A stretch of DNA of 15,493 nucleotides. It comes from a virus (taxonomy: Duplodnaviria > Heunggongvirae > Uroviricota > Caudoviricetes). The notes under the pieces are model-generated. The model was not told the origin of the DNA and ran no database searches. It saw only the letters and a list, made by a program, of their open reading frames with translations. The stretch is taken from IMG/VR virus record IMGVR_UViG_2606217117_000017; one strand, given 5' to 3'. Position numbers and translations under genes: made by a program. Positions 1,002 through 15,493 of this stretch are shown piece by piece (position 1 is the stretch's first letter; each line of letters starts with the position of its first letter).

Positions 1002-1700
1002 ACTGTACGTCGACTGATACAGCGGATTAACGAGATAATGATTTACGCTGTAAACACTGGTCTGATTGATGCCAATCCAGCATCGGGGGTTGGGATGGCC
1101 TTTGAGAAGCCCAAAAAGCAAAACATGCCAACATTGCGGCCAGAAGAATTGCCGAAGCTGATGCGTTCTTTAGCTATGTCAAACCTATCTGTTTCGACTC
1201 GCTGTCTCATTGAATGGCAACTCCTGACACTTGTGCGTCCTTCTGAAGCCTCTGGTGCTCGTTGGGCAGAGCTCGATCTTGATACAAAGCTCTGGACTAT
1301 TCCGGCAGAGAGAATGAAAGCCAAACGAGAGCACATTGTTCCTTTATCACCCCAAGCTTTAGATATTTTGGAAGTGATGAAGCCCATCAGTGCTCATCGT
1401 GAACATATTTTTCCTAGCAGAAATGATCCTAAGCAATCAATGAATAGCCAAACTGCTAATGCAGCTTTAAAACGTATTGGTTTTGGAGGAAAGCTAGTTG
1501 CTCATGGCCTCCGATCTATTGCAAGTACAGCAATGAATGAAGCTGGGTTCAATGCGGATGTTATTGAAGCAGCTTTAGCTCACAGTGATAAAAATGAAGT
1601 TCGTAAAGCCTATAATCGTTCAACCTACCTGGTTCAAAGAAAAGATTTAATGAACTGGTGGGGATTATTTTGTATTAGTTCGAAGAGTGTGAATAAATGA
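1002..1700 (+). pseudogene. int: P4-family tyrosine integrase, C-terminal ~230 codons only; 5' portion separated by the IS629 insertion
   Basis: Open frame runs from the IS629 end (no stop from 1002) to 1700. Translation contains catalytic-domain motifs AHGLRSIASTA (HxxR) and AHSDKNEVRKAYNRSTY (catalytic Tyr region) and resembles CP4-57 IntA/P4 Int C-terminal halves (QRINEIMIYAxNTGLIDAxP...). No N-terminal arm-binding domain is present in the window. Confidence 0.8.
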
Positions 1701-3334
1701 ATACTTATAAGCAAACCATTAAACAAAAATCAAGATTAAACATATGGGAAACAGCTATCGCAAGGTTGACAACCCAAGCTGAGAGCTCAAGAATCTTAGA
1801 ATCAAACTATTTAACAAATCTTATAGATTTTTGTTGGAAAGATACACTAAATCAAGTTGCTATATATGATGAGAGCATTGTATTACGCAATGGTTATAAT
1901 TGGGTGCAAAAAATAAGTGATAGTTATAAACCTAAAGCTGCAAGTGAACTAAAGATTGCTTTCTTTTGCGGCCCTGAACCAGAAAATGACTTGGATATAC
2001 TCTTATCATTAGATGTTAGAATAGAAAATATCTGGGCTTTTGAAATTGATAACAATTCATATAACACTGCCTTACAAAAAGCTAAAGAGTTCTATCCAAA
2101 ATTAAAAATATTCCCTGGTTCTATTGGGGAGTTTTTTAAAACCACACATCATACCTTTGATATTATTTACCTTGATTTTACAAGTTCGTTATTGACTAAA
2201 AAGAGCCCTCCCCTTGGAGTAATAAACTCTGTATTTGACAATCAGGCCCTATCAGACTTAGGGGTGTTAATTGTAAACTCTTGCGAACCCGATGCTAACG
2301 AAGATAACGCAACATTTCTTGCAAGTTATTTCATGAATCACGAAATAATTGAATCATCTGTAATTAACAAAACTAATGATGATGATTATGATGATAACTA
2401 TGATTATTTTTCACTTTTTATTGAATCCCCCACATCACAAGGATACGATGATATAAAGTCATTAGCAAAAGTTATAAAGACTAACATATCCGGAGCGTAC
2501 TCTGCCTTTTCAACAAGTTATGTAATGCACTATGCTTCAATGATTAGTCCAACACTTCGTTTTCTACAAAATAACTCATTAAAAAGACAATTATTTAATG
2601 ATAAAAAAGCTGAAGTAACTGCAACCTTTGCAGAAATTGGATCAACTGACTTTTTCAAAACATTAATATCAACAGATGGTGAAGCATCGTCCCCCTCCAT
2701 TTTAGGAAACAGATTCCTAGATAATGAAAGCTACCCATTCTGGAATTTCATTGATTCATTAAATGGCTCAGGAACAAGTATTTCATCTTACTTTAAGAGC
2801 TTTTTCACCACCGCTAAAGAAGGTGTATCCATTTTAAATGCCGTGCAATTTCGGGAATCATTTCACTCAATGCTTACAGGAGCTAGAAAGCTATTATCTC
2901 AGCGAATGCTCAATGCAATACCCCAAATAATAAAAGCAATTCCTGATGCTAGAGGTGGTTTATTCTGTGACATTCCTTTACCCCACCTTTGGTTAGAGGT
3001 GGCACTTAATCAGTTAGGTGCACCATACCATGTAAACGTGAAAATGCATAATCGATGGAAATATAAAGCAAAAACTCGCACAATGCATACGGACTTATTT
3101 GTTTTTGATAGATGCAGAGGTTTTTATGACTCAATGCCTATGATAGATCAATACGAAACGATTCTTACTAACATCGAAGAACAAATTTTCGCTAGGTGTT
3201 GTATTGATATTATTGGTAAGCAATGTCGTTGGCCAACTCCAAAACTTTATTTTGGTTCGAACCTAATTGGAATAAACGAGTCTGATTGGTCTGAGTTCGC
3301 CGAACTTCGTGAAAGAGAAATTATAAAAGAATAA
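1697..3334 (+). CDS. Hypothetical 545-aa protein, AT-rich cargo gene in the P4 int-psu accessory hotspot; function unknown (candidate anti-phage defence protein). N-terminal third has a weak Rossmann/SAM-methyltransferase-like motif pattern.
   Basis: Long uninterrupted ORF with a start overlapping the int stop (ATGA at 1697-1700). Hand counts of 60-nt blocks give roughly 23-45% G+C versus ~70% in a block of alpha. Motif-like segments KIAFFCGPEP, DVRIENIWAFEID, FDIIYLDFTSS, GVLIVNS; acidic low-complexity stretch NDDDYDDNYDY. No Walker A, HNH or obvious PD-(D/E)xK motif seen. Confidence 0.75.
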   Translation: MNTYKQTIKQKSRLNIWETAIARLTTQAESSRILESNYLTNLIDFCWKDTLNQVAIYDESIVLRNGYNWVQKISDSYKPKAASELKIAFFCGPEPENDLDILLSLDVRIENIWAFEIDNNSYNTALQKAKEFYPKLKIFPGSIGEFFKTTHHTFDIIYLDFTSSLLTKKSPPLGVINSVFDNQALSDLGVLIVNSCEPDANEDNATFLASYFMNHEIIESSVINKTNDDDYDDNYDYFSLFIESPTSQGYDDIKSLAKVIKTNISGAYSAFSTSYVMHYASMISPTLRFLQNNSLKRQLFNDKKAEVTATFAEIGSTDFFKTLISTDGEASSPSILGNRFLDNESYPFWNFIDSLNGSGTSISSYFKSFFTTAKEGVSILNAVQFRESFHSMLTGARKLLSQRMLNAIPQIIKAIPDARGGLFCDIPLPHLWLEVALNQLGAPYHVNVKMHNRWKYKAKTRTMHTDLFVFDRCRGFYDSMPMIDQYETILTNIEEQIFARCCIDIIGKQCRWPTPKLYFGSNLIGINESDWSEFAELREREIIKE

Positions 3335-3367: not shown

Positions 3368-3468
3368 CCGCCCGCTTTGCGGGGCGGTTTTAATGCAGTT
3401 GCACTGACACGCTCAGACCGCGCCGGGAATGGCGCGGTTTGCAGAAAATGAGGCAGGGAAACGCATGC

Positions 3469-3502
3469 AAAGCCATGCACCTTATCGATGCATGGCTTTT
3501 TT
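3469..3502 (+). terminator. Rho-independent terminator (possibly weakly bidirectional) between cos and the psu 3' end
   Basis: Perfect inverted repeat aaagccatgca (3469-3479) / tgcatggcttt (3489-3499) with a 9-nt loop, followed by a T-run on the + strand (3497-3502). On the minus strand the hairpin is followed by a less T-rich tail. Confidence 0.6.
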
Positions 3503-3532
3503 CAGTAAAAACGGGCGGATTTTCGGGGAATT

Positions 3533-4105
3533 TTACACTGACTGACGTGATGCAAGTTGCGCACTTTTACGCGAAAAAATCATGTTCTGCGCAGGGGTGA
3601 ATTTTTCACGGCTGTCATCCACCGAAGCCACGTCAGGCCTGAATCCGATGGTCGTTAAAATGTCGCTATCCTGTGCGGAATAATTAATTTTTTCACCCTT
3701 CGCAAGCCAGGACAGAAGGGCTTCACGCAGGGCATCTGTGGCACGCTGTATGGCACAGTTTCGGGCAATGGCCGTCAGCTCACTGTAGCCCATCAGCTCC
3801 GGTGCCAGTGCGGCCGCCAGTACTGTGCCGTGCTGCTGCATAAAATCATTCAGCCGGTCGCGGATGCTGATGTGCTGAACGGCTTCATGCGAACGAATAT
3901 AACGACCGGCGGCCTGATTCACCTGCCATTTTCTGACTTCGATAATATTGCGTAATTCGTCCAGGCGGCTGACGTTTCTGCCTTCTCCTGACAGAAGCCG
4001 CAGATATTCCTGTTCGGCCGCTGCCAGCTCATTTTTGCGTTGCAGCCATGCTGCTTTGTTATTCTGACAGGTGTCAAAGGCCTGCTGTAAGGCTGTGCTT
4101 TCCAT
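3533..4105 (-). CDS. psu: Psu (polarity suppression / capsid decoration protein), 190 aa
   Basis: 190-aa ORF, last gene of a three-gene leftward operon after sid and delta. Size and order match P4 Psu as recalled. Confidence 0.85.
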   Translation of the reverse strand: MESTALQQAFDTCQNNKAAWLQRKNELAAAEQEYLRLLSGEGRNVSRLDELRNIIEVRKWQVNQAAGRYIRSHEAVQHISIRDRLNDFMQQHGTVLAAALAPELMGYSELTAIARNCAIQRATDALREALLSWLAKGEKINYSAQDSDILTTIGFRPDVASVDDSREKFTPAQNMIFSRKSAQLASRQSV

Positions 4106-4178
4106 CGTTATCTCTTTCTCATCATGCTGAAGAATAAAAATACGGTGTGCGGCGACGGCCGGGGTTAACCGGCAGCCC

Positions 4179-4679
4179 TCATTCCAGACGCAGCGAATAT
4201 GATTGTGTTTTTAACCGTACTGGCGGCAGTTCCTGTTTTTCATGCAGGCGTTCTGCCAGTTCGTCCGGCGTGACCGGGCGGACAATGAAGCGGGTGATGG
4301 TCTGAAGCGTTTTAAACACCAGACCACAGTCCGGATCCGTGCACACATAAAAACGCTCGGTGACTTCCTGAGACAGACGCCGCGATGTTCTTGACAGCGC
4401 AAGGCCTTTACATCTCCGACAACAATATCCGGTAACAAGCATTCTTTTCGGGCGTTTCATACTGCCGGAGGCTGACGTCAGTGAATCGCGGTATCTCTGT
4501 TTGCCTGAAATGTATTCCATTCCTGAATCTTTACTGTCAGAGAAAAAGCTTTCACTCGCTTCAAATGTCGCAGAGCAATAAATATTCCGGCACTGTGCAA
4601 TCATTATCTTGGTGCCATCGTCCATGAAATGTGCGCGACGGGTGTGAGCAACATGTCCACACGACGGGCAGTAAATCAT
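4179..4679 (-). CDS. delta: Delta (Ogr-family zinc-finger late transcription activator, tandem Ogr-like domains), 166 aa
   Basis: Two Cys-rich Ogr-like zinc-finger modules (MIYCPSCGH...CRNIYC... and ...YCCRRCKG...CTDPDC...). 166 aa as in P4 delta. Start ATG overlaps the sid stop (ATGA at 4676-4679). Confidence 0.85.
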   Translation of the reverse strand: MIYCPSCGHVAHTRRAHFMDDGTKIMIAQCRNIYCSATFEASESFFSDSKDSGMEYISGKQRYRDSLTSASGSMKRPKRMLVTGYCCRRCKGLALSRTSRRLSQEVTERFYVCTDPDCGLVFKTLQTITRFIVRPVTPDELAERLHEKQELPPVRLKTQSYSLRLE

Positions 4680-5410
4680 GACAGCAGTCCTCTGGCCTTA
4701 AGCTCTGCTCCCTGCTGGTCTATTTTGTCCTGCCACACCTTGCGCTGTGCCGGTGTGCCTGCCACCTCATAATCCATGTGCGGGAGTGTTGCCGCTGACA
4801 GTCCGGTCAGCCGGAGAACCGGCTCGCCGGTGAGGCTGATTTGCATCTGTTTAATTTTCTGTTCCAGCGATGATTTCACCTGCTGCATGACAGCTTTATC
4901 GGGTGCGACGTAGCCCTGATGGCCGGTGGTGTTGGCGAGCGGATTTTCCTGTACCAGGATACTCAGATGCATTGCCCGGACAAGCGCCTCACAGGTTTCA
5001 TTCAGGGCGTGTTCCAGCTCATGCTCTGCATACAGACTCAGAAGGTGATGATGTGCCTTCCGGTAGGCGGTGGCCGTGCTGTCACACGCCCCTTTCAGGC
5101 GTTCACGTTCGAAATTCAGCACCACGGCCAGATTGTCATATTCCTGTACCAGCTCCCGGCGTGCCACGCGCTCAATGTGGCGCTGTTTCAGCTCGTCGCT
5201 CAGGACACCACCGGCTGCACGAAAGGCCGTGCGCCAGTCGTCAGCGTCGTTTCCGTTGGCCTGCGTCAGCGCATTTTTTTCCTGCTCTGCCCGTTCAATG
5301 GCCGTGATGGTCTCATCCATCAGGCGGGCGTTCTCAAGATGAGCGGCTCTGGCCTTTTCCAGTTGTGCCAGTGCGGGTTGCAGATATTCAGGGATGGTGT
5401 TGTCAGACAT
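4676..5410 (-). CDS. sid: Sid (capsid size determination, external scaffold), 244 aa from ATG at 5410 (an upstream in-frame GTG at 5428 would give 250 aa)
   Basis: Coiled-coil-like, Ala/Glu/Leu-rich protein at the head of the sid-delta-psu operon. ATG at 5410 is preceded by GGAG about 10 nt upstream; 244 aa matches P4 Sid as recalled. Confidence 0.8.
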   Translation of the reverse strand: MSDNTIPEYLQPALAQLEKARAAHLENARLMDETITAIERAEQEKNALTQANGNDADDWRTAFRAAGGVLSDELKQRHIERVARRELVQEYDNLAVVLNFERERLKGACDSTATAYRKAHHHLLSLYAEHELEHALNETCEALVRAMHLSILVQENPLANTTGHQGYVAPDKAVMQQVKSSLEQKIKQMQISLTGEPVLRLTGLSAATLPHMDYEVAGTPAQRKVWQDKIDQQGAELKARGLLS

Positions 5411-5424
5411 TTTCCGGCTCCTCG

Positions 5425-5500
5425 TCACTTCAGGTTAAGAAAATTGTGACGTACACCGGACAACAACACGACGCATTGCAGATGTGCCAGCCCTGACACA
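5425..5500 (-). promoter_or_regulatory. Candidate Psid late promoter with Ogr/Delta-type activator dyad TGT-N12-ACA
   Basis: TGTgccagccctgacACA at 5483-5500 (palindromic half-sites 12 nt apart), centred about 55 nt upstream of a predicted minus-strand start near 5436; weak -10-like cacaat at 5437-5432. A second TGT-N12-ACA at 5435-5452 lies too close to the sid ATG to be the activator site. Confidence 0.4.
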
Positions 5501-5579
5501 GGAGACTCATCCTCACACCGGCAAGCCAGGAAAAGGTCGCAGGAAAAACCGGCTTACTGTTTGTTTTTTTATATTTTAC

Positions 5580-5683
5580 TGTTCACCTCTGTTCACCATA
5601 AGAAAAAAGATAAGTAATACAGTAAGTTAAAGGGTGAACAATCGCAGTAATGACTGTTCACCGTCTGTTCACCACTGTTCACC
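5580..5683. other. ori: replication origin with six copies of the P4 type I iteron TGTTCACC (alpha-binding octamer)
   Basis: Perfect octamers at 5580-5587, 5590-5597, 5655-5662, 5666-5673, 5676-5683 (TGTTCACC) and 5633-5640 (GGTGAACA, inverted), flanked by AT-rich runs (5561-5580, 5700-5730). Located between the divergent sid and vis/alpha operons. Confidence 0.75.
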
Positions 5684-5788
5684 CGTTGATGGGCTTTTTG
5701 TGCTGTTTATTACTGTTTATTTTTATTAATTCGCCGGGAATGAATAAGAAAAAACGATTTGTATTTCACTATAAAAATTACGAATTGC

Positions 5789-5818
5789 TTTAAGTGGCTT
5801 TAAATGACTTTAAGTGGA
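5789..5818. promoter_or_regulatory. Three tandem 10-bp repeats resembling P2 Cox boxes (TTAAAGNCA on the minus strand)
   Basis: ctttaagtgg / ctttaaatga / ctttaagtgg at 5789-5818. The reverse complement contains TTAAAGTCA and TTAAAGCCA, matching the Cox-box consensus as I recall it. Lies upstream of the candidate PLL dyad. Confidence 0.4.
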
Positions 5819-5852
5819 GATGAACAAAAAACACACAAGCATTGTAAGGCTG

Positions 5853-5870
5853 CCGGAACAAATCCCCCCT
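5853..5870 (+). promoter_or_regulatory. Candidate PLL-type late promoter activator site (TGT-N12-ACA) upstream of vis
   Basis: TGTaaggctgccggaACA at 5853-5870; A/T-rich -10-like sequence around 5893-5900; vis ATG at 5963. Confidence 0.35.
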
Positions 5871-5962
5871 GTTGCGTCTGCCAAAAATATTCACAAAATA
5901 AAGCGCTACCCGAAGCCGGACGGACTTATCCGGTGCTGTATGGACATTAACGAGGTAGCCCG

Positions 5963-6229
5963 ATGCAAGCTGTTTTTTCTTCCCCGTCTCCCGCCCCTGT
6001 GACGCCACTGATGCCGCTGCCGGACATCACGCAGGAACGTTTTTTACGTCTGCCGGAAGTAATGCACCTGTGCGGCCTGTCACGCTCGACCATCTATGAA
6101 CTCATCCGTAAGGGGGAATTTCCGCCGCAGGTGAGTCTTGGCGGTAAAAATGTGGCCTGGCTGCACTCTGAAGTCACCGCATGGATGGCCGGGCGCATTG
6201 CCGGACGCAAACGGGGGTACGACGCATGA
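5963..6229 (+). CDS. vis: Vis / AlpA-family excisionase-type DNA-binding regulator (88 aa; an internal ATG at 6011 would give 72 aa)
   Basis: MerR/AlpA-type HTH ([48 protein letters not shown]). GAGG SD 8 nt upstream of ATG 5963. Position and size equal P4 vis (orf88) as recalled. Confidence 0.75.
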
Positions 6230-6264
6230 TGATGCCCGCTCTGCAAAAACTCCCTTTTTCTGGC

Positions 6265-6294
6265 TTGCCTTTTTTCGGCATTTGCGGATATAGT
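6265..6294 (+). promoter_or_regulatory. Candidate sigma70 promoter (PLE-like) for the immunity/alpha operon
   Basis: TTGCCT (6265-6270), 18-nt spacer, TATAGT (6289-6294); followed by the seqA-like element. Confidence 0.35.
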
Positions 6295-6324
6295 TTTCCC
6301 GCTGCCGCAAAATCGGCAGCCGGG

Positions 6325-6620
6325 CGTGGAAACCCGAGCAATCTAACGGCGACATATGACGCGCCATGCGTCTTTTTTTGTGTCGCAATCAACGCCACAG
6401 AGCGCCAGATTATGGTGTGGTGTGTGGTCAGTCGAGCAGATGGCACTCCGTGCATCCTGCCCGCGTCCGCTCATTATGCCGCAGGGTCAATGGTAGCTCA
6501 GGCGGGGCAGCCTCCGGGCTGGCCGGTATCCGTTAGAGCCGGTATTTCCACCCCCGTCTGGGCTATCGCCATCGAGCGTGGAAACTCCGGCGATAGCGTA
6601 ACCTGCTATCTAACGGAGGC
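6325..6620 (+). ncRNA. cI: P4-type RNA immunity leader: putative seqA (~6335-6353), CI-RNA/seqB (~6520-6545) and seqC (~6598-6618)
   Basis: Two direct copies of cgtggaaac...atctaacgg (6325-6349 and 6578-6614) flank a segment containing the complementary tccgttaga (6529-6537). This is the arrangement expected for a CI RNA that pairs with upstream and downstream target sites. Boundaries are approximate. Confidence 0.45.
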
Positions 6621-6627
6621 TGCCATC

Positions 6628-6825
6628 ATGGCTACAACCCTTACCCCTTCACACCCTGAATTTGTCTTTGTGTTTGCGGCTGTCCGTCGCGCAGACCGTC
6701 ATCCCCGTATCTGCATGCTTCGCACCGTCGCCGGTGATGAACGCAGTGCCCGCCGTTCCCTTGTCCGTGACTATGTGCTCTCCCTTGCTGCCCGTCTGCC
6801 GGTGGTGGAGGTGTCCCGTGCGTAA
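6628..6825 (+). CDS. Hypothetical small protein (~65 aa) immediately downstream of the seqC-like site
   Basis: ATG at 6628 preceded by GGAGG (6614-6618). It is the 3' part of a longer ORF-track frame whose upstream portion overlaps vis and the regulatory leader and is unlikely to be coding. Confidence 0.4.
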
Positions 6826-7105
6826 TAAAAAAGCCCCTCAGACCGTCTCAGCACGTCATGACGCCCGTGAACACCTCAGCATTGAGGCTTACCATAAGCT
6901 CAACCGCGCCAGCGCCGTATCCCAGTTTGTTGGGGGTGATTTGATTCACCGTGAACTCTCCGGCCTGCATCAGCTCTACATTCCGCATATTTTCAGCTAC
7001 CTGAATGAAGATATTGATTTTGTGCTGAATGAGCTGAAAGCCAAAGGCCTGTGCCGCGATTTTCTCGCCCAGCAGAAAGACCGGGGAGACAGGACGCATG
7101 TTTGA
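6818..7105 (+). CDS. Hypothetical protein (~95 aa) at the position of P4 epsilon (anti-repressor); identity not established
   Basis: GTG at 6818 preceded by GGAGG (6807-6811); overlaps the stop of the preceding small ORF and is itself overlapped by the orf151 start (ATG 7098 / stop 7103-7105), suggesting translational coupling. It is the 3' part of ORF-track frame 6662-7105. Confidence 0.5.
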
Positions 7106-7553
7106 TTTTCCCCAGCCCGGTGAGATTTACCGTTCTGCCGGTTTTCCCGATGTGGCCGTGGTCGGCATTCTGGAAGACGGTATTCCGTGGGAAATGCCGT
7201 ACCGCTGCCCGGACATTGTCTGGAACCCGTACCGCCGTAAATTCAGTATCCTTGTGCGTATCCTCGCTGACGGGCGCACCACAGACATCCCGCTGGGGCG
7301 TTTTCTGCGGGAATTTACCTGTGACCGTCCTGACCTGTTTAAACGCAGCCCCGTAAACCGGCATGCGGTACTGAAAGAAATGGCCGGAGACCCGGAATTA
7401 CAGAAATGGCGGGAGAAATATCTGGATATTTACCCGCAGGACACTGTTCCGGTCAGCCGGGCGGCACCGGTGGCGCGGGAATGGCGGGAAATTCCCCGCA
7501 CGGAGCCTGACCCGGAAATCACCCCGGATAACAGTTACCGCAATTATCTGTAA
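7098..7553 (+). CDS. orf151-like protein (151 aa), P4 left-operon protein of unknown function
   Basis: Exactly 151 codons, upstream of alpha in the same operon; GGAGA SD upstream. Confidence 0.7.
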   Translation: MFDFPQPGEIYRSAGFPDVAVVGILEDGIPWEMPYRCPDIVWNPYRRKFSILVRILADGRTTDIPLGRFLREFTCDRPDLFKRSPVNRHAVLKEMAGDPELQKWREKYLDIYPQDTVPVSRAAPVAREWREIPRTEPDPEITPDNSYRNYL

Positions 7554-7688
7554 TTAAAAAACGACACCCGAAAAATTAAATGTGCGTATTCGCGCAGGGA
7601 TACGCACGTCTTCAGGAGACGCAGATATGCCTTATCAGTTAATGCAACCGGCACGGAATGCAGTCATCTGTCACAGGGAGGAAAACAA

Positions 7689-8009
7689 ATGAAAACACCC
7701 TTACCGCCCGTCTTACGCGCTGCCCTTTACCGTCGCGCTGTCGCCTGTGCCTGGCTGACCGTGTGCGAACGTCAGCACCGCTACCCGCATCTCACCCTTG
7801 AGTCACTGGAAGCGGCCATCGCCGCTGAGCTGGAAGGCTTTTATCTGCGCCAGCACGGTGAGGAAAAAGGGCGTCAGATAGCCTGTGCCCTGCTGGAAGA
7901 TTTAATGGAATCCGGCCCCCTGAAGGCCGCGCCGTCGCTGTCCTTTCTCGGGCTGGTTGTGATGGATGAACTCTGTGCCCGTCACATAAAAGCGCCGGTA
8001 CTGCACTGA
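7689..8009 (+). CDS. 106-aa protein immediately upstream of alpha; position and size fit P4 Cnr (copy-number regulator), identity not verified
   Basis: Strong SD (GGGAGG at 7675-7680), 106 codons, ends 14 nt before the alpha ATG. Confidence 0.65.
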
Positions 8010-8023
8010 AGGAGAACAACACC

Positions 8024-10357
8024 ATGAAAATGAACGTAACCGCCACCGTCAGCCATGCGCTCGGCCACTGGCCGCGTATTCTCCCGGCGCTGGGGATTCA
8101 GGTGCTGAAAAACCGTCATCAGCCCTGTCCGGTCTGTGGCGGGAGTGACCGCTTCCGTTTTGATGACAGGGAGGGGCGCGGCACCTGGTACTGCAATCAG
8201 TGTGGTGCCGGTGACGGCCTGAAACTGGTTGAAAAGGTGTTTGGTGTCTCCCCGTCCGACGCGGCCGCAAAGGTGGCTGCCGTGACCGGCAGCCTGCCCC
8301 CGGCTGACCCGGCAGTGACGGCTGCCGCCGGTGCTGAAACAGACGCTGCCCGGAAGAACGCCGCCGCACTGGCACAAACCCTGATGGCGAAAACCCGTCC
8401 CGGAACCGGTAACGCCTACCTGACCCGCAAGGGCTTTCCCGGCCGGGAATGCCGGATGCTGACCGGCACACACAGAGCCGGTGGCGTGAGCTGGCGTGCC
8501 GGTGACCTTGTGGTGCCACTGTATGACGACAGCGGCGAACTGGTTAACCTTCAGTTAATCAGTGCTGACGGCCGTAAGCGCACCCTGAAAGGCGGACAGG
8601 TCAGGGGCACCTGTCACACCCTTGAAGGACAGAATCAGGCCGGAAAACGTCTGTGGATAGCGGAGGGATACGCGACCGCACTTACCGTGCATCACCTGAC
8701 CGGTGAAACGGTGATGGTGGCGCTTTCTTCCGTGAACCTCCTTTCTCTGGCCAGCCTTGCCCGGCAGAAGCATCCGGCCTGTCAGATTGTCCTTGCCGCA
8801 GACCGTGACCTCAGCGGTGACGGCCAGAAAAAAGCCGCCGCAGCCGCAGATGCGTGTGAAGGTGTTGTTGCCCTGCCGCCGGTCTTCGGTGACTGGAATG
8901 ATGCCTTCACGCAGTACGGCGGGGAGGCCACCCGTAAGGCCATTTACGATGCCATCCGGCCACCGGCTGAAAGCCCGTTCGACACCATGAGTGAAGCGGA
9001 GTTTTCCGCCATGAGTACCAGCGAAAAGGCCATGCGTATCTATGAGCATTACGGCGAGGCGCTCGCGGTCGATGCCAACGGCCAGCTTCTGTCCCGCTAT
9101 GAAAATGGTGTCTGGAAGGTGCTGCCGCCACAGGACTTTGCCCGGAATGTGGCCGGGCTGTTTCAGCGGCTGCGCGCGCCGTTCTCCTCCGGGAAGGTGG
9201 CCTCCGTGGTGGACACCCTGAAGCTGATTATTCCGCAGCAGGAAGCCCCCTCCCGCTGCCTGATTGGCTTTCGTAACGGCGTGCTCGACACGCAGAACGG
9301 CACGTTCCACCCGCACAGTCCGTCACACTGGATGCGTACCCTGTGCGATGTGGATTTCACCCCGCCGGTGGAAGGGGAAACGCTGGAAACCCACGCCCAC
9401 GCGTTCTGGCGCTGGCTTGACCGTGCCGCCGGTGGCCGTGCGGAAAAACGCGACGTGATTCTGGCCGCACTGTTTATGGTGCTGGCAAACCGCTATGACT
9501 GGCAGCTCTTTCTGGAGGTGACCGGTCCCGGCGGCAGCGGCAAAAGTATCATGGCCGAAATAGCCACCCTGCTGGCCGGGGAGGATAACGCCACGTCGGC
9601 CACCATTGAGACGCTGGAATCCCCGCGTGAACGTGCCGCGTTAACTGGCTTCTCACTGATACGCCTGCCGGACCAGGAAAAATGGAGCGGCGACGGAGCC
9701 GGACTCAAGGCCATCACCGGCGGCGATGCAGTGTCCGTTGACCCGAAATACCGGGATGCGTACTCCACGCATATCCCGGCGGTGATTCTGGCCGTGAACA
9801 ATAACCCGATGCGCTTCACCGACCGCAGCGGCGGCGTGTCACGCCGGCGGGGGATTATTCACTTCCCGGAACAGATAGCCCCGCAGGAGCGCGACCCGCA
9901 GCTTAAGGACAAAATCACCCGCGAGCTGGCGGTCATCGTGCGTCACCTGATGCAGAAGTTCAGCGACCCGATGCTCGCCCGGTCACTGCTTCAGTCCCAG
10001 CAGAACTCAGACGAGGCACTGAACATCAAACGGGATGCCGACCCGACGTTTGATTTTATCGGCTATCTGGAAACCCTGCCGCAGACCAGCGGCATGTATA
10101 TGGGGAACGCCAGTATCATCCCGCGTAATTACCGTAAATACCTCTATCACGCCTATCTGGCCTACATGGAGGCAAACGGCTACCGGAATGTACTCAGTCT
10201 GAAAATGTTCGGGCTGGGGCTGCCGGTGATGCTGAAGGAATACGGACTGAATTACGAGAAGCGCCATACCAAACAGGGGATACAGACCAACCTGACACTG
10301 AAAGAGGAAAGCTACGGCGACTGGCTGCCAAAATGTGACGCCCCTGCAACAACCTGA
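8024..10357 (+). CDS. alpha: Alpha: P4-type primase-helicase with origin-binding domain, 777 aa
   Basis: N-terminal zinc-binding primase motif CPVCGGSDRFRFDDREGRGTWYCNQCG; Toprim-like EGY (WIAEGYATA) and DRD (LAADRDLSGDG); Walker A GPGGSGKS; AGGAG SD at 8011-8015. Length equals P4 alpha as recalled. Confidence 0.92.
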   Translation: MKMNVTATVSHALGHWPRILPALGIQVLKNRHQPCPVCGGSDRFRFDDREGRGTWYCNQCGAGDGLKLVEKVFGVSPSDAAAKVAAVTGSLPPADPAVTAAAGAETDAARKNAAALAQTLMAKTRPGTGNAYLTRKGFPGRECRMLTGTHRAGGVSWRAGDLVVPLYDDSGELVNLQLISADGRKRTLKGGQVRGTCHTLEGQNQAGKRLWIAEGYATALTVHHLTGETVMVALSSVNLLSLASLARQKHPACQIVLAADRDLSGDGQKKAAAAADACEGVVALPPVFGDWNDAFTQYGGEATRKAIYDAIRPPAESPFDTMSEAEFSAMSTSEKAMRIYEHYGEALAVDANGQLLSRYENGVWKVLPPQDFARNVAGLFQRLRAPFSSGKVASVVDTLKLIIPQQEAPSRCLIGFRNGVLDTQNGTFHPHSPSHWMRTLCDVDFTPPVEGETLETHAHAFWRWLDRAAGGRAEKRDVILAALFMVLANRYDWQLFLEVTGPGGSGKSIMAEIATLLAGEDNATSATIETLESPRERAALTGFSLIRLPDQEKWSGDGAGLKAITGGDAVSVDPKYRDAYSTHIPAVILAVNNNPMRFTDRSGGVSRRRGIIHFPEQIAPQERDPQLKDKITRELAVIVRHLMQKFSDPMLARSLLQSQQNSDEALNIKRDADPTFDFIGYLETLPQTSGMYMGNASIIPRNYRKYLYHAYLAYMEANGYRNVLSLKMFGLGLPVMLKEYGLNYEKRHTKQGIQTNLTLKEESYGDWLPKCDAPATT

Positions 10358-10364
10358 CCCACCT

Positions 10365-10390
10365 GACCGGCATCTGCCGGTCTTTTTTTT
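10365..10390 (+). terminator. Rho-independent terminator downstream of alpha
   Basis: Stem gaccggc / gccggtc (10365-10382) with a 4-nt loop, followed by T8 (10383-10390). Confidence 0.65.
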
Positions 10391-10404
10391 ATCCCGACAT
10401 CCCC

Positions 10405-10706
10405 CGAAGGTGAACAATCCAGTGTTCACCCTTCACCGTATATTCACCCGTTATCATACTGAAATTAAAAGAGAAAAACGAAAGGTGAACAGTGTGAACA
10501 ATCAAATCAAAAAAAACTTTTTTCTTCCTGAGTGATTTCAGTACGGGGGATTAATCACCGGTATGAGTCACACCGACAGAATGCCGGAGGTGAAGAATCG
10601 AATGTTCACCCTTCACCCATTATTCACCACCTATCACTCTGAAATAAAAGGAGAAAAAAGAAAGGTGAACAGTGTGAACAGTTCTTTCGAAAAAAAATTT
10701 TTTTCC
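10405..10706. repeat. crr (cis replication region): two ~120-bp direct repeats, each with three perfect TGTTCACC/GGTGAACA iterons plus degenerate copies
   Basis: Repeat 1 ~10405-10525, repeat 2 ~10585-10706, highly similar. Perfect octamers at 10409-10416, 10423-10430, 10484-10491 and 10603-10610, 10664-10671, with near-copies GTGAACA at 10494-10500 and 10674-10680, GGTGAAGA at 10589-10596, and TTCACC partials. Each repeat ends in an A/T run. Confidence 0.75.
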
Positions 10707-10983
10707 TGTACGATATAGCATCAATCCAAGTAAAAATGCGCTTTCATTTCACATTAACTTACAGCCATTGGTATACGATTAGGTATACGCACAAAAACTG
10801 AATTAAACAAAATCATTAAAAATCAAAGCAATACAATATTTATTCAAACTCCGCCAGCCATGATTGGACGGTGTAAGGACAACACCAACAAAAACAGGAA
10901 GTTAGAAGTCTCAGCAAAACACCGACCAGACGGTGAGGAGACATAAAAGGATACGCAAAGGAGCCGCGGCTCCTGGTAACATG

Positions 10984-11007
10984 AAAGCCCACAGATGTGG
11001 GCTTTTT
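10984..11007. terminator. Hairpin downstream of the autotransporter stop (possible bidirectional terminator)
   Basis: aaagcccac (10984-10992) / gtgggcttt (10997-11005) with a 4-nt loop, then tt. A second palindrome, ggagccgcggctcc, lies nearby at about 10959-10974. Confidence 0.45.
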
Positions 11008-11016
11008 CGTTGATGG

Positions 11017-14000
11017 TCAGAACGACCAGTTCACACCAGCTACCGCGTTCCACGGGGATTCCACACCGGCACTATGGCTATACCCCACCCCAAGATGCCC
11101 GCTTAACGTACTGCTGAATGAGGCTTTAATACCTGCCTGGTATATTCCACGTCTGCCCGACAAATAATTGACGAAATTACCGTCACTATTCACTTTCACC
11201 CGGTTATCATCGACAAATTCTTTGCGCACAGCCGCCTTCAGCCACGGCTCAACTTCCATACCGTTCCCCAGACGCATGTTGTAACTCAGCGTTGCGCCCA
11301 GTTCACGATATATACTGCGGGTATCGACTGATTTCGATTTCATGCCATTGGATAAATGATATTCGGGGTTATCAGCGGTGAACCCCGTTAACGATGCATA
11401 CGGCGTCAGGTTCCAGTTACCATCGGTAAATCGCATCCCGGTTTCAATGTGACCGCCCAGCCCGTTGCTGTGGTAACTGCCATTGGCGGCTCCACCGCTG
11501 CTCATTTTACCTGCTACGTTACTTTTAAAACGGTTCAGCTTCACGACACCGTCCAGATAGAAACCACTTTCATGTTCCCAACTGGCATAGCCGCCCAGAG
11601 AATAACTGCCCACACTGCCATGTCCTCCGCGATCAAAACCGATATGTGAATGGGAATAGCCCATAAAAGCGCCTAGCGTGGTAATTCCTTCAGGAATATC
11701 ATTACGGCTGTCGATCCCCACTGTCATTCCGGTCAGCGTCTGCTCAAACCCGGCACCCGCATCGGTGGTGACATTATTACGGGTGTTATACGTCGCCCCC
11801 CAGACATTATTGTTGTGTGGACTCGCTTTCATTATGTTCAACCGCTCGCGAATACTGTTTAGCTCAGCATCAAATACCAACGGTAATGTTGCTGCCATAT
11901 TGAGTACGGCTGCCGTAGAAGGCGTAATGCGTTTCTCCGGAACGGGTGTCGGCGTTGGATCGGGAGTAGGGTCTGGTTTTGGATTTGGGTCTGGCTTTGG
12001 ATCGGGTTTTGGGTCTGGCTTTGGATTTGGGATGGGGTCCGGGTTGGGTTTGACATCATTGGTCAGGTTCCAGTTGCTGTTGCCGTCACTTTTCAGGACA
12101 TACTCATAGGTCCCAAGATCAACGAAACCGCCGGTATTGCCCAGCGTAAACGAAGCATCCCCTCCCCCTGTTTTCACCAGCGTCATCGCGTCGTCAGACT
12201 GTGGGCTGACGCCGGTATCCTGAACAAAGATTTTAAAATTACCAGTGGCGTTGTTGTTGACGACCAGTTGATCGCCCCGGGAGCCTGCAACGTTGGTATG
12301 CAGGTAGAAATTACCGCTACCGGAAAGTTCATTGGTTGTCAGCGTATTGTAGATACCGTTAGTTGTGGCAGGCGCTGCTGTTTGTGCTGACAAATAAACA
12401 TCACCGTCGTTGAGTAGCAAACTGTTTACTCTATATTCGCAGTTGCTGGTACCTGCACAGGAATTATTGCTGTTAAGCCAGACACTGCCCCGGCTGGCAG
12501 CCGTCAGGTCGGCAAGCGTGGTATCGACGCCATTTCCCAGAGTCAATGTCGCGCTATCGGTAATCCGGACCGCCCCTTCGAGTTTAACTGGCGTAACATT
12601 ATCCCGTGGCGTCATTAACGACAGGCTTCCTGTCGCGCCACTGACCGATGCATCCGCCAGCGTACCTGCGTAGACGATTGCCGTACCGCCAGCGACCTGG
12701 AGATCTTCTGCCCGGGCCAGAGCCTGAAACTCATCTTTTGACCGCCCAAGGGTATATTGCCCGCCAGAGTTAACCTTTGTGGCGGAGTCCTGACCCAGGT
12801 TTTGCATTGCCCCACCCTTGCCAACCGTGGAGTCGCGAGCTTCGGTACCTGCTAATACCAATAAATTACCGCCATTTTCCAGCAACATATTGGTCGCTAA
12901 ATTGCCGGAAATGGAAAAAGTACCGTACTGGTGAGTACCGCTGATTTCAATACCGTTAGCCGTGCTCGTCTGGAGAGCGGCACCGCTGTTCTGGACGATA
13001 TCTGTCGCTTTGCCATTATCGTTGACTGTCAGCGTACCGCCTTCATTGATCTTTGTTTTTATTGCCTCTCCGTTAGCTGAAACTGTTTGTATTCCGCCGT
13101 CGTTAATTGTTGTCTCATTCGCCACACCCTCGACAATTTGTTCACCGCCGGTGAGCGTCGTGCCTGTCGCAGTGGCTTTTGTTTTGACGATCTCCCGTCC
13201 GCCCATATTGACCTGTGTTTTGTCAGAAGAGGTGTCTGACTCCACGGTTAACACGCCGCCATTTGCCAGCAGGATATTGTTCGCCGCACCCTGCTCGATG
13301 CTGAACGCGACGCCATCCGCGCGTGTTCCTGTGACCCGCGTCGCCCTGGTGGTTGCAACCAAAGCGCCCTGGCTACTCTGCTGTATCCCCGTTGCGCTGC
13401 CTTTCTCCCGCACATCGAGTGTGCCGCCGTCATTAAGCACCGAGTTTTCAGCCAGACCGCCCTCATTAACTACCTGTGAACCCCCATTAATAATGGAACC
13501 TTCCGCTGTCCCGTTTGCCATAATTTGTTGTAGGCCAGAGACGATATCGGTATTGATTGCCTTACCATAATTCTGAACGGTTTGCGTGCCACCATTGATG
13601 TGTGTTTTCTCTGTTGACCCACCATCAACAATTTGTTCACCACTTTCGATATTTGCTTCAGTGGCTAAACCATATACCGTTTGCTTGCCACCTTTGATAT
13701 TTGCTTTATCAGAAGTGGCACTGGCATATATTGTTTGGGTGCCAGCACTATTGAGTACAGTGCCAACATCTTTTCCATAAACATCCATTTTGCCGTTGGC
13801 ATTAATAATCGTGTCAACTGCGCGGGAACCAGTGACGACTGTTAATGAGCCAGCGTTTTCCAGCACTACATTTTTAGCTTCTGAATTCCTGATGTAGAAA
13901 GCATCACCATAACTGTTGGTTCCTTCGATAAGTGTTCCGGAGGTCGTGGAAGCAATTAATGCGCCGCCGGATTGTTGCTCAACATGCTTAGCCTCACCAC

Positions 14001-14164
14001 CGTCCTGAACCTCCAGAACGCCGCCATTATTAAGTCTGGTGCTATCTGTTTTAGCCTCCTTCTGGACAATCAGCTTACCGCCAGTATCAATGGTAGTATT
14101 TTTCGCCGAGGTTTTAGCCACTACCGTCAGTTCGCCGGTATTTTCCAGCACAACATAATTAGCC
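11017..14164 (-). pseudogene. AIDA-I/Ag43-type (type Va) autotransporter adhesin, 5'-truncated by IS10 (no signal peptide or N-terminal passenger start in window)
   Basis: C-terminal beta-barrel ending ...AVAGVNWSF; repetitive Gly/Thr/Asn-rich passenger with ~19-aa repeats (GGxQxV...); Pro-rich linker PNPDPIPNPKPDPKPDPKPDP. The ORF-track start codon at 14218-14220 and first 18 codons lie inside the IS10 terminus, so the native 5' end is missing. Confidence 0.8.
11948..12053. repeat. In-frame tandem repeat (24-bp period, GGNTYTGG-type units) encoding the Pro-Asp/Lys linker of the autotransporter
   Basis: gggtctggctttggat occurs at 11988-12003 and 12012-12027, with related hexamer units throughout 11948-12053. 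Confidence 0.7.
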
Positions 14165-15493
14165 CTGATGAATCCCCTAATGATTTTGGTAAAAATCATT
14201 AAGTTAAGGTGGATACACATCTTGTCATATGATCAAATGGTTTCGCGAAAAATCAATAATCAGACAACAAGATGTGCGAACTCGATATTTTACACGACTC
14301 TCTTTACCAATTCTGCCCCGAATTACACTTAAAACGACTCAACAGCTTAACGTTGGCTTGCCACGCCTTACTTGACTGTAAAACTCTCACTCTTACCGAA
14401 CTTGGCCGTAACCTGCCAACCAAAGCGAGAACAAAACATAACATCAAACGAATCGACCGATTGTTAGGTAATCGTCACCTCCACAAAGAGCGACTCGCTG
14501 TATACCGTTGGCATGCTAGCTTTATCTGTTCGGGCAATACGATGCCCATTGTACTTGTTGACTGGTCTGATATTCGTGAGCAAAAACGACTTATGGTATT
14601 GCGAGCTTCAGTCGCACTACACGGTCGTTCTGTTACTCTTTATGAGAAAGCGTTCCCGCTTTCAGAGCAATGTTCAAAGAAAGCTCATGACCAATTTCTA
14701 GCCGACCTTGCGAGCATTCTACCGAGTAACACCACACCGCTCATTGTCAGTGATGCTGGCTTTAAAGTGCCATGGTATAAATCCGTTGAGAAGCTGGGTT
14801 GGTACTGGTTAAGTCGAGTAAGAGGAAAAGTACAATATGCAGACCTAGGAGCGGAAAACTGGAAACCTATCAGCAACTTACATGATATGTCATCTAGTCA
14901 CTCAAAGACTTTAGGCTATAAGAGGCTGACTAAAAGCAATCCAATCTCATGCCAAATTCTATTGTATAAATCTCGCTCTAAAGGCCGAAAAAATCAGCGC
15001 TCGACACGGACTCATTGTCACCACCCGTCACCTAAAATCTACTCAGCGTCGGCAAAGGAGCCATGGGTTCTAGCAACTAACTTACCTGTTGAAATTCGAA
15101 CACCCAAACAACTTGTTAATATCTATTCGAAGCGAATGCAGATTGAAGAAACCTTCCGAGACTTGAAAAGTCCTGCCTACGGACTAGGCCTACGCCATAG
15201 CCGAACGAGCAGCTCAGAGCGTTTTGATATCATGCTGCTAATCGCCCTGATGCTTCAACTAACATGTTGGCTTGCGGGCGTTCATGCTCAGAAACAAGGT
15301 TGGGACAAGCACTTCCAGGCTAACACAGTCAGAAATCGAAACGTACTCTCAACAGTTCGCTTAGGCATGGAAGTTTTGCGGCATTCTGGCTACACAATAA
15401 CAAGGGAAGACTCACTCGTGGCTGCAACCCTGCTTACTCAAAATTTATTCACACATGGTTACGCTTTGGGGAAATTATGAGGGGATCTCTCAG
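14165..15493 (+). mobile_element. IS10 (IS4 family), complete 1329-bp copy; outside end at 14165, inside end at the last base of the window
   Basis: Begins CTGATGAATCCCCTAATGATTTTGGTAAAAATCATTAAGTTAAGGTGGATACACATCTTGTCATATGATC (IS10 outside end, from memory) and ends ...TTATGAGGGGATCTCTCAG (inside end); length 1329 bp. Confidence 0.9.
14272..15480 (+). CDS. IS10 transposase, 402 aa
   Basis: ORF-track protein MCELDILHDSLYQFCPELHLKRLNSLTLACHALLDCKTLTLTELGRNL... matches the IS10/Tn10 transposase from memory; starts 108 nt inside the element. Confidence 0.92.
   Translation: MCELDILHDSLYQFCPELHLKRLNSLTLACHALLDCKTLTLTELGRNLPTKARTKHNIKRIDRLLGNRHLHKERLAVYRWHASFICSGNTMPIVLVDWSDIREQKRLMVLRASVALHGRSVTLYEKAFPLSEQCSKKAHDQFLADLASILPSNTTPLIVSDAGFKVPWYKSVEKLGWYWLSRVRGKVQYADLGAENWKPISNLHDMSSSHSKTLGYKRLTKSNPISCQILLYKSRSKGRKNQRSTRTHCHHPSPKIYSASAKEPWVLATNLPVEIRTPKQLVNIYSKRMQIEETFRDLKSPAYGLGLRHSRTSSSERFDIMLLIALMLQLTCWLAGVHAQKQGWDKHFQANTVRNRNVLSTVRLGMEVLRHSGYTITREDSLVAATLLTQNLFTHGYALGKL

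Follow-up and report, generated by a model that had tools for sequence, protein, structure and literature searches.

In the 15,493 nucleotide stretch of viral DNA analysed here (the window), three tandem 10-bp repeats and a TGT-N12-ACA dyad lie upstream of a vis gene. The initial annotation took these, together with a second dyad, as signs of a satellite that senses a P2-like helper phage. The question raised by this locus is which element carries the repeats, which protein would read them, and whether the arrangement is shared by related elements.

Identity of the element

Comparison with phage P4 (X51522 4291-11624, reverse strand) found 98.2% identity over window positions 3369-10703, and 97.5% over the 1-kb stretch around the decamers. 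The near-identity extends across psu-delta-sid-ori-vis-cI-epsilon-alpha-crr, which places the element in P4 at the species level, and the gene order is that of P4: sid-delta-psu, then Psid, ori and PLL, then vis. The genes delta, sid and psu are all present and intact, and vis is the first gene downstream of PLL. The following genes were assigned:

3533-4105, minus strand: Psu, with a protein domain that fits P4
4179-4679, minus strand: delta, an Ogr-family activator encoded by the satellite itself (Pfam Ogr_Delta, 1.4e-22, with two zinc-finger stretches)
4676-5428, minus strand: Sid, with a protein domain that fits P4
5963-6229, plus strand: vis (ORF88, AlpA-family excisionase/regulator; Pfam Phage_AlpA, 7e-21, and the P4 ORF88 annotation)
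6181-6825: Ash/Icd-like protein, with a protein domain that fits P4
8024-10357: alpha primase-helicase, with a protein domain that fits P4

Rfam also identified the P4 immunity RNAs, namely the C4/CI RNA (6486-6573) and its targets (6288-6340), plus isrK. The window had no match to P4 left of 3369 or right of 10703, and the P4 int/attP and gop-beta-cII region was not found in it. Judged by its sequence, the element is a P4 prophage, a near-identical copy of P4 from cos to crr, which the initial annotation had not recognised as P4 itself. The decamers and the dyads sit in the divergent Psid / ori / PLL control region of this prophage.

The left flank contains an IS3-family element upstream of an integrase gene, recognised by an ALIL frameshift pseudoknot at 549-665 and by DNA matching Stx phages at >99% (1-1007). 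This integrase gene differs from that of P4 and is truncated to the C-terminal 220 aa (1038-1700). In E. coli Z0117EC0055 the same element has an intact 401-aa integrase adjoining ssrA; the copy in the window may perhaps have lost excision despite its intact helper sensor. Between the integrase gene and cos/psu, in the cargo/defence hotspot of P4, a 545-aa ORF (1697-3334, plus strand) occupies the place of P4 gop-beta-cII. No match to this ORF was found in Pfam, PADLOC or NCBIfam, and it is annotated as hypothetical in E. coli Z0117EC0055. On the other side, P4 homology ends right of crr (10703-15493), without the P4 attP. This flank comprises an AIDA/Ag43-type autotransporter gene (11017-14220, minus strand) followed by IS10 (RNA-OUT 14210-14279, transposase 14272-15480). 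The right side of the element abuts glaH instead in E. coli Z0117EC0055.

The tandem decamers as P2 Cox boxes

Tandem Repeats Finder confirmed the three decamers, reporting a period of 10 and 3.1 copies at 5787-5817. On the plus strand they read CTTTAAGTGG CTTTAAATGA CTTTAAGTGG (5788-5817). The initial annotation had read their minus strand as the consensus for P2 Cox binding sites, and this reading fits the published cox-box consensus, TTAAA(G/C)NC(A/C) (PMC3936717). Cox sites are described as having at least six copies of this box, with starts 10-11 bp apart and a footprint of at least 70 nt (PMC3936717; PMC5009727). The site for P2 Cox in P4 lies upstream of PLL, its boxes pointing away from the -35/-10 elements and leaving the promoter free (PMC3936717; PMC5009727), and the GenBank record of P2 states that the P4 late promoter is activated by Cox. 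In the window the array consists of:

5788-5817, minus strand: three tandem 10-bp repeats, the core of the Cox-box array (Tandem Repeats Finder; annotated at X51522 9176-9205; identical to P4)
5785-5793, minus strand: Cox box TTAAAGCAA, 7/8 specified positions
5795-5803, minus strand: Cox box TTAAAGCCA, 8/8
5805-5813, minus strand: Cox box TTAAAGTCA, 8/8
5816-5824, minus strand: TTCATCTCC, a weak cox-like box (6/8) on the promoter side, 11 bp from its neighbour

The starts of these boxes on the minus strand (5785, 5795, 5805 and 5816) are 10-11 bp apart. The boxes read on the strand opposite to vis, lie at least 25 bp upstream of the PLL dyad and are directed away from the promoter. With two exact boxes and one of 7/8, they match the published P4 Cox site in consensus, spacing and orientation. 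A scan with the degenerate consensus found additional, weaker cox boxes further upstream. Since 3-4 good boxes are visible against at least six in the literature, the remaining boxes must be very degenerate.

Exact matches to TTAAAGNCA number three in the whole window, against 0.65 expected; on the minus strand they are at 5795-5803 and 5805-5813. Phased runs of at least three boxes were found only twice in 826 kb of related background DNA, or about 0.04 expected per window. Throughout the P4 genome, boxes of at least 7/8 in 10-bp phase occur only at 9180/9190/9200, which are these same decamers. As a control, the same scan was run on P2, where it recovered phased boxes both over Pc and within the Cox site annotated at attP.

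The initial annotation had called for a comparison with P4. The region of about 5784-5837 proved to be base-for-base the same, the nearest differences lying just outside it, so that the decamers and their immediate flanks are identical to P4 and the repeats align to its Cox-box site. P4 records label the decamers 'ori type 2 repeat' within the replication origin, X51522 9176-9205 corresponding to window 5788-5817. A strong deduction is that the Cox footprint would be centred on, or cover, exactly these decamers. Short ORFs at 5790-6008 (minus strand), 5804-5950 (plus strand) and 5814-6002 (plus strand) were dismissed as spurious; P4 annotates no gene there.

The PLL promoter and the vis leader

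The late promoter PLL, between the decamers and vis, was assigned two features:

5843-5860: PLL activator dyad TGTAAGGCTGCCGGAACA, TGT-N12-ACA, an Ogr/Delta-type site (pattern and conservation)
5870-5899, plus strand: PLL core promoter, with a -35-like TGTTGC (5870-5875) and a -10-like CAAAAT (5894-5899) in a conserved block

A TGT-N12-ACA dyad upstream of vis had been claimed at 5853-5870. The dyad exists, but at 5843-5860, and the gap between the repeats and the dyad is 25 bp rather than 35 bp, both figures having been off by 10. TGT-N12-ACA is the published consensus of Ogr-dependent late promoters (PMC3931495). The bare pattern occurs seven times in the window against 4.0 expected, and 18 of 200 shuffled sequences reach seven, so it is not rare; the significance of the PLL dyad comes from its position and conservation, not from the bare pattern. 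Compared with P4, the dyad carries three substitutions, all in the spacer, with TGT and ACA intact. The 28 unique E. coli-type PLL sequences, one variant apart, all keep TGTAAG and GAACA, and the centre varies. Conserved half-sites around a variable centre are the pattern expected for the target of a protein that contacts two half-sites.

Downstream of the dyad, the block cTTGTTGC-N-AAAATATTCACAAAATA is kept in most of the aligned P4-like loci, which come from many genera. No sigma-70 consensus promoter was detected in 5400-6000, as expected for an activator-dependent promoter. The dyad, the weak or absent sigma-70 consensus and a delta gene with an Ogr_Delta domain, all features of a late promoter of the Ogr/Delta type, are present. 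From the -10-like CAAAAT we infer a transcription start for PLL near 5906, which would place the centre of the dyad at about -54.5 and the strong Cox boxes at about -118 to -89. Julien and Calendar reportedly found, in 1995, that the dyad is centred about 55 bp upstream of the transcription start.

In relatives from outside E. coli (L006-L045) the PLL dyad is a 17-bp palindrome, for example TGTGGTGGGCCACTACA, with the form TGT-N11-ACA, or has a spacer of N13; the Psid dyads of these relatives keep N12. The use of the activator at PLL may differ in the lineages with N11 or N13 dyads.

The vis leader (5908-5950) is highly conserved across genera. It contains an inverted repeat, CCGGA (5916-5920) and TCCGG (5929-5933), along with a CGGA motif that recurs. 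P4 has similar repeats of CGGA, spaced by about 10 bp, at X51522 3966-4078, between the int start and the attP core. The leader is a candidate Vis operator or RNA hairpin.

The Psid promoter and the replication origin

On the other side of the control region, the following features were located:

5445-5462: second TGT-N12-ACA, TGTGACGTACACCGGACA, 38 bp promoter-proximal to the Psid dyad
5483-5500: Psid activator dyad TGTGCCAGCCCTGACACA, TGT-N12-ACA, serving the divergent sid-delta-psu operon
5580-5683: six type I iterons TGTTCACC of the P4 ori, binding sites of the alpha protein (P4 annotation)

The Psid dyad had been placed correctly in the initial annotation, which missed the one next to it. 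An exact TGT-N12-ACA is found at the position equivalent to the Psid dyad in most related loci long enough to include it; among the loci examined, the second dyad was found only in P4-type sequences (the window and L005). The dyad at 5445-5462 is probably the second Delta site of Psid, near -18, which Julien and Calendar reportedly described in 1995.

A replaceable block among P4 relatives

To place the decamers among related elements, 123 P4-like PLL regions gathered via Vis and the PLL core sequence were compared, 101 of them with unique slots. One block of the control region varies as a unit:

5776-5825: replaceable block of about 50 bp (boundaries set by eye from the aligned sequences)

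Among the P4-like PLL regions this block is replaced by unrelated tandem repeats of 10-11 bp. In the E. coli P4-type subset the flanks are kept ('...TTTCACTATAA' on the left and 'AAAAAACACACAG...TGTAAG' on the right) and the block comes in three versions:

Cassette type 1: the cox-box decamers, as in the window; 439 of 5426 complete E. coli genomes
Cassette type 2: TTCCAGTTCCTTCAGAACCCTTTGAGACCCTTCCAGTCCGG; 209 of 5426 genomes
Cassette type 3: TTCCAGCTCCTTCCAGAGCGTTTTAAAGCTATCTGGCGCTG; 373 of 5426 genomes

The whole intergenic region was found in 1069 of the 5426 complete E. coli genomes, roughly a fifth. Across the three cassette types, identity is 98-100% for Vis, alpha, Delta and Sid; with satellite proteins so nearly identical, the reader of the cassette is unlikely to be encoded by the satellite. 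Loci that show alternative cassettes at the slot are L051, L057, L026, L015, L010, L016, L121 and L178.

At least three phased P2 cox boxes were present in 7 of the 101 unique slots, each time on the minus strand; only 0.1% of background windows have such a run. In other genera and some E. coli (L178) the slot is filled with direct repeats that have a TTGCCA core, 3-6 of them at intervals of 10-11 bp. Three or more TTGCCA-like sites on the same strand were counted in 52 of the 101 slots, whereas only 2.6% of the 2690 background windows had as many; 51 of these 52 slots have the sites in one orientation. The strict detection of phased arrays misses the helpers' own operators except 186 attP and is thus conservative, leaving 42 of the 101 slots unclassified. 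In the distant element L121 (Vis 62% and alpha 84% identical) this slot holds cox boxes that point the other way.

Matches between cassettes and helper operators

The cassettes were set against the switch/att DNA of nine P2-like phages, 39.5 kb in all. TTGCCA is the motif of the annotated Apl operators of phage 186, with seven at pR-pL and five at attP, and for the L015 cassette the two best local matches (E = 0.002 and 0.007) lay within the two Apl-binding regions annotated in 186. The switch repeats of the 720R8-type Cox class are similar to the cassette of L010.

For the type 2 cassette, the best match was a 12-mer in the att-proximal zone of WPhi. This 12-mer adjoins a repeated GTGGACAC motif like that in the annotated Int P' arm of P2, where the P2 record places the Cox site. 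The type 2 cassette also has two 8/10 matches to the Pe-Pc direct repeat of WPhi, and it shares 7-mers with WPhi. The Cox protein of WPhi, for which a direct repeat of 12 nt is the reported recognition site, is described as unable to activate P4 (PMC5009727). The WPhi core motif AAGGGAC, with at most one mismatch, never reached three hits in any slot. The assignment of type 2 to WPhi-type Cox sites is suggestive, not firm; a modular sensor would predict that satellites with this cassette respond to WPhi Cox.

No assignable match to the type 3 cassette was found in the nine helper switch regions, and BLAST searches of types 2 and 3 against 50,697 phage records gave chance hits only. Aligning the P4 cassette directly with the switch/att DNA of P2 also gave nothing; the boxes of P2 itself are too degenerate for this, and the link between the two comes from the consensus scan alone. 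Taken together, the satellite arrays may match the operators of P2 Cox, 186 Apl, probably the WPhi-type and 720R8-type Cox, and others.

The boxes of the satellite at 5785-5813 (8/8, 8/8 and 7/8) surpass those of P2 Pc (L046 2455-2482; 7/8, 6/8 and 8/8), and many satellite TTGCCA arrays are cleaner than the pR-pL operators of 186. Such differences hint at selection on the satellites to capture the helper protein with high affinity.

We judge the chances to be about even that the block 5776-5825 is a modular helper sensor, in which P4-like satellites swap operator arrays for the excision/switch proteins of their helpers. The cassette, and not a satellite protein, may then set which helper wakes the prophage. 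No description of a swappable PLL cassette was found in the searchable literature, which covers few of the older P4 papers. If true, the helper specificity of a P4-like satellite could be read from about 50 bp of DNA, giving a handle for predicting which P2-like phage mobilises which satellite and its defence cargo, and the non-conservation of the so-called type II origin repeats would be explained. The cassette polymorphism is the result that goes beyond known P4 biology and is worth pursuing.

Alternative explanations for the decamers

The label given to the decamers in P4 records suggests another role, as functional parts of the replication origin (an unwinding element, or a site for alpha or a host factor), to which the likeness to cox boxes would be secondary. 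They are annotated inside the rep_origin feature, the DNA around them is A+T-rich, and the type I iterons are about 105 bp away. However, elements whose alpha proteins are 98.5-99.4% identical carry two unrelated cassettes in this block between conserved flanks, and a block swapped among near-identical elements is not expected of a conserved origin component. The replacement cassettes also look G+C-richer (by eye, uncomputed), and the type I iterons occur in most relatives, whereas the decamers are confined to P4-type elements. A role in the origin is therefore unlikely. It is less likely still, with only a slim chance in our estimate, that the decamers are operators through which the satellite's own Vis autoregulates PLL, rather than sites for a helper protein. 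Vis belongs to the recombination directionality factors, proteins that bind tandem repeats spaced by one helical turn, and P4 Vis has been reported to regulate transcription away from att (PMC7498355). Yet elements with any of the three E. coli cassettes share a Vis that is 100% identical, the cassettes of L015 and L016 differ although their Vis proteins are near-identical, and the vis leader at 5908-5950 offers a far better conserved candidate target.

The region is A+T-rich, the consensus is short and bare TGT-N12-ACA is not enriched in the window, all of which would suit a simple repeat that resembles cox boxes by chance. Against this, arrays of at least three phased boxes are as rare in background DNA as given above, the sequence is identical to the experimentally studied site of P4, and 439 E. 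coli genomes carry it, mostly with at least 95% identity. The P4 identity and the background statistics effectively refute a chance origin, whose probability we regard as negligible.

Proposed mechanism of helper sensing

The locus is very probably the upstream regulatory region of PLL of a P4 prophage, composed of a Cox array and an Ogr/Delta dyad. The proposal of a satellite that senses a P2-like helper is upheld by the P4 identity, the match to the Cox consensus, the spacing and the orientation, all directly observed here as is the conservation of the half-sites, and by the adjacent delta gene. A PLL responsive to Cox, Ogr and Delta is already-known, textbook P4 biology. In the scheme below, Cox binding and activation and the dependence on Ogr/Delta are taken from the literature on P4, and the start site and the extent of the footprint are our estimates from the sequence.

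The three decamers and the weaker boxes flanking them would form a head-to-tail operator array for P2 Cox. Upon infection by, or induction of, a P2-type helper, Cox would be made early, nucleate on the boxes, polymerise away from the promoter and wrap the DNA; the promoter would stay free and PLL would be activated. Transcription from PLL would then run through vis, the immunity region, epsilon and alpha, and the prophage would be derepressed. Later, the zinc-finger activators Delta (of P4) and/or Ogr (of P2) would act at the PLL and Psid dyads. For the window this amounts to a clean annotation, an intact late promoter with predicted responsiveness to P2 Cox and to Delta/Ogr identical to that of P4, and nothing new is claimed for it.

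Comparison with known systems

The closest known system is PLL of phage P4 itself (X51522 about 9130-9210), which is the same element, with the same decamers and flanks. The window differs from P4 by the three spacer substitutions of the dyad, by a few others in the flanks, and by the int/att module and the cargo between int and cos.

The Cox operators of P2 (Pe-Pc and attP) share the consensus, the spacing of 9-11 bp and the logic of direct repeats. P2's own boxes, however, are more degenerate (6-8 of 8) and overlap Pc, where Cox represses, and at P2 attP the boxes face both ways, whereas the P4 array lies upstream of its promoter, points in one direction and activates. The Apl operators of phage 186 have a like architecture of short direct repeats 10-11 bp apart, and according to the literature Apl binding requires at least three of them; the motif (TTGCCA) and the protein differ from those of Cox, and an array of this motif is not present in this window.

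The late promoters PP, PO, PV and PF of P2 and Psid of P4 have the same TGT-N12-ACA dyad and use the zinc-finger activators Ogr/Delta/B. PLL, unlike these, also carries an upstream Cox array.

The same logic is known from the SaPI/PICI satellites, which leave dormancy on sensing a specific protein encoded by their helper. In SaPIs that protein binds Stl, the repressor of the satellite; unlike this arrangement, the operator array of the P4 type lies in the DNA of the satellite and reads the DNA-binding protein of the helper directly.
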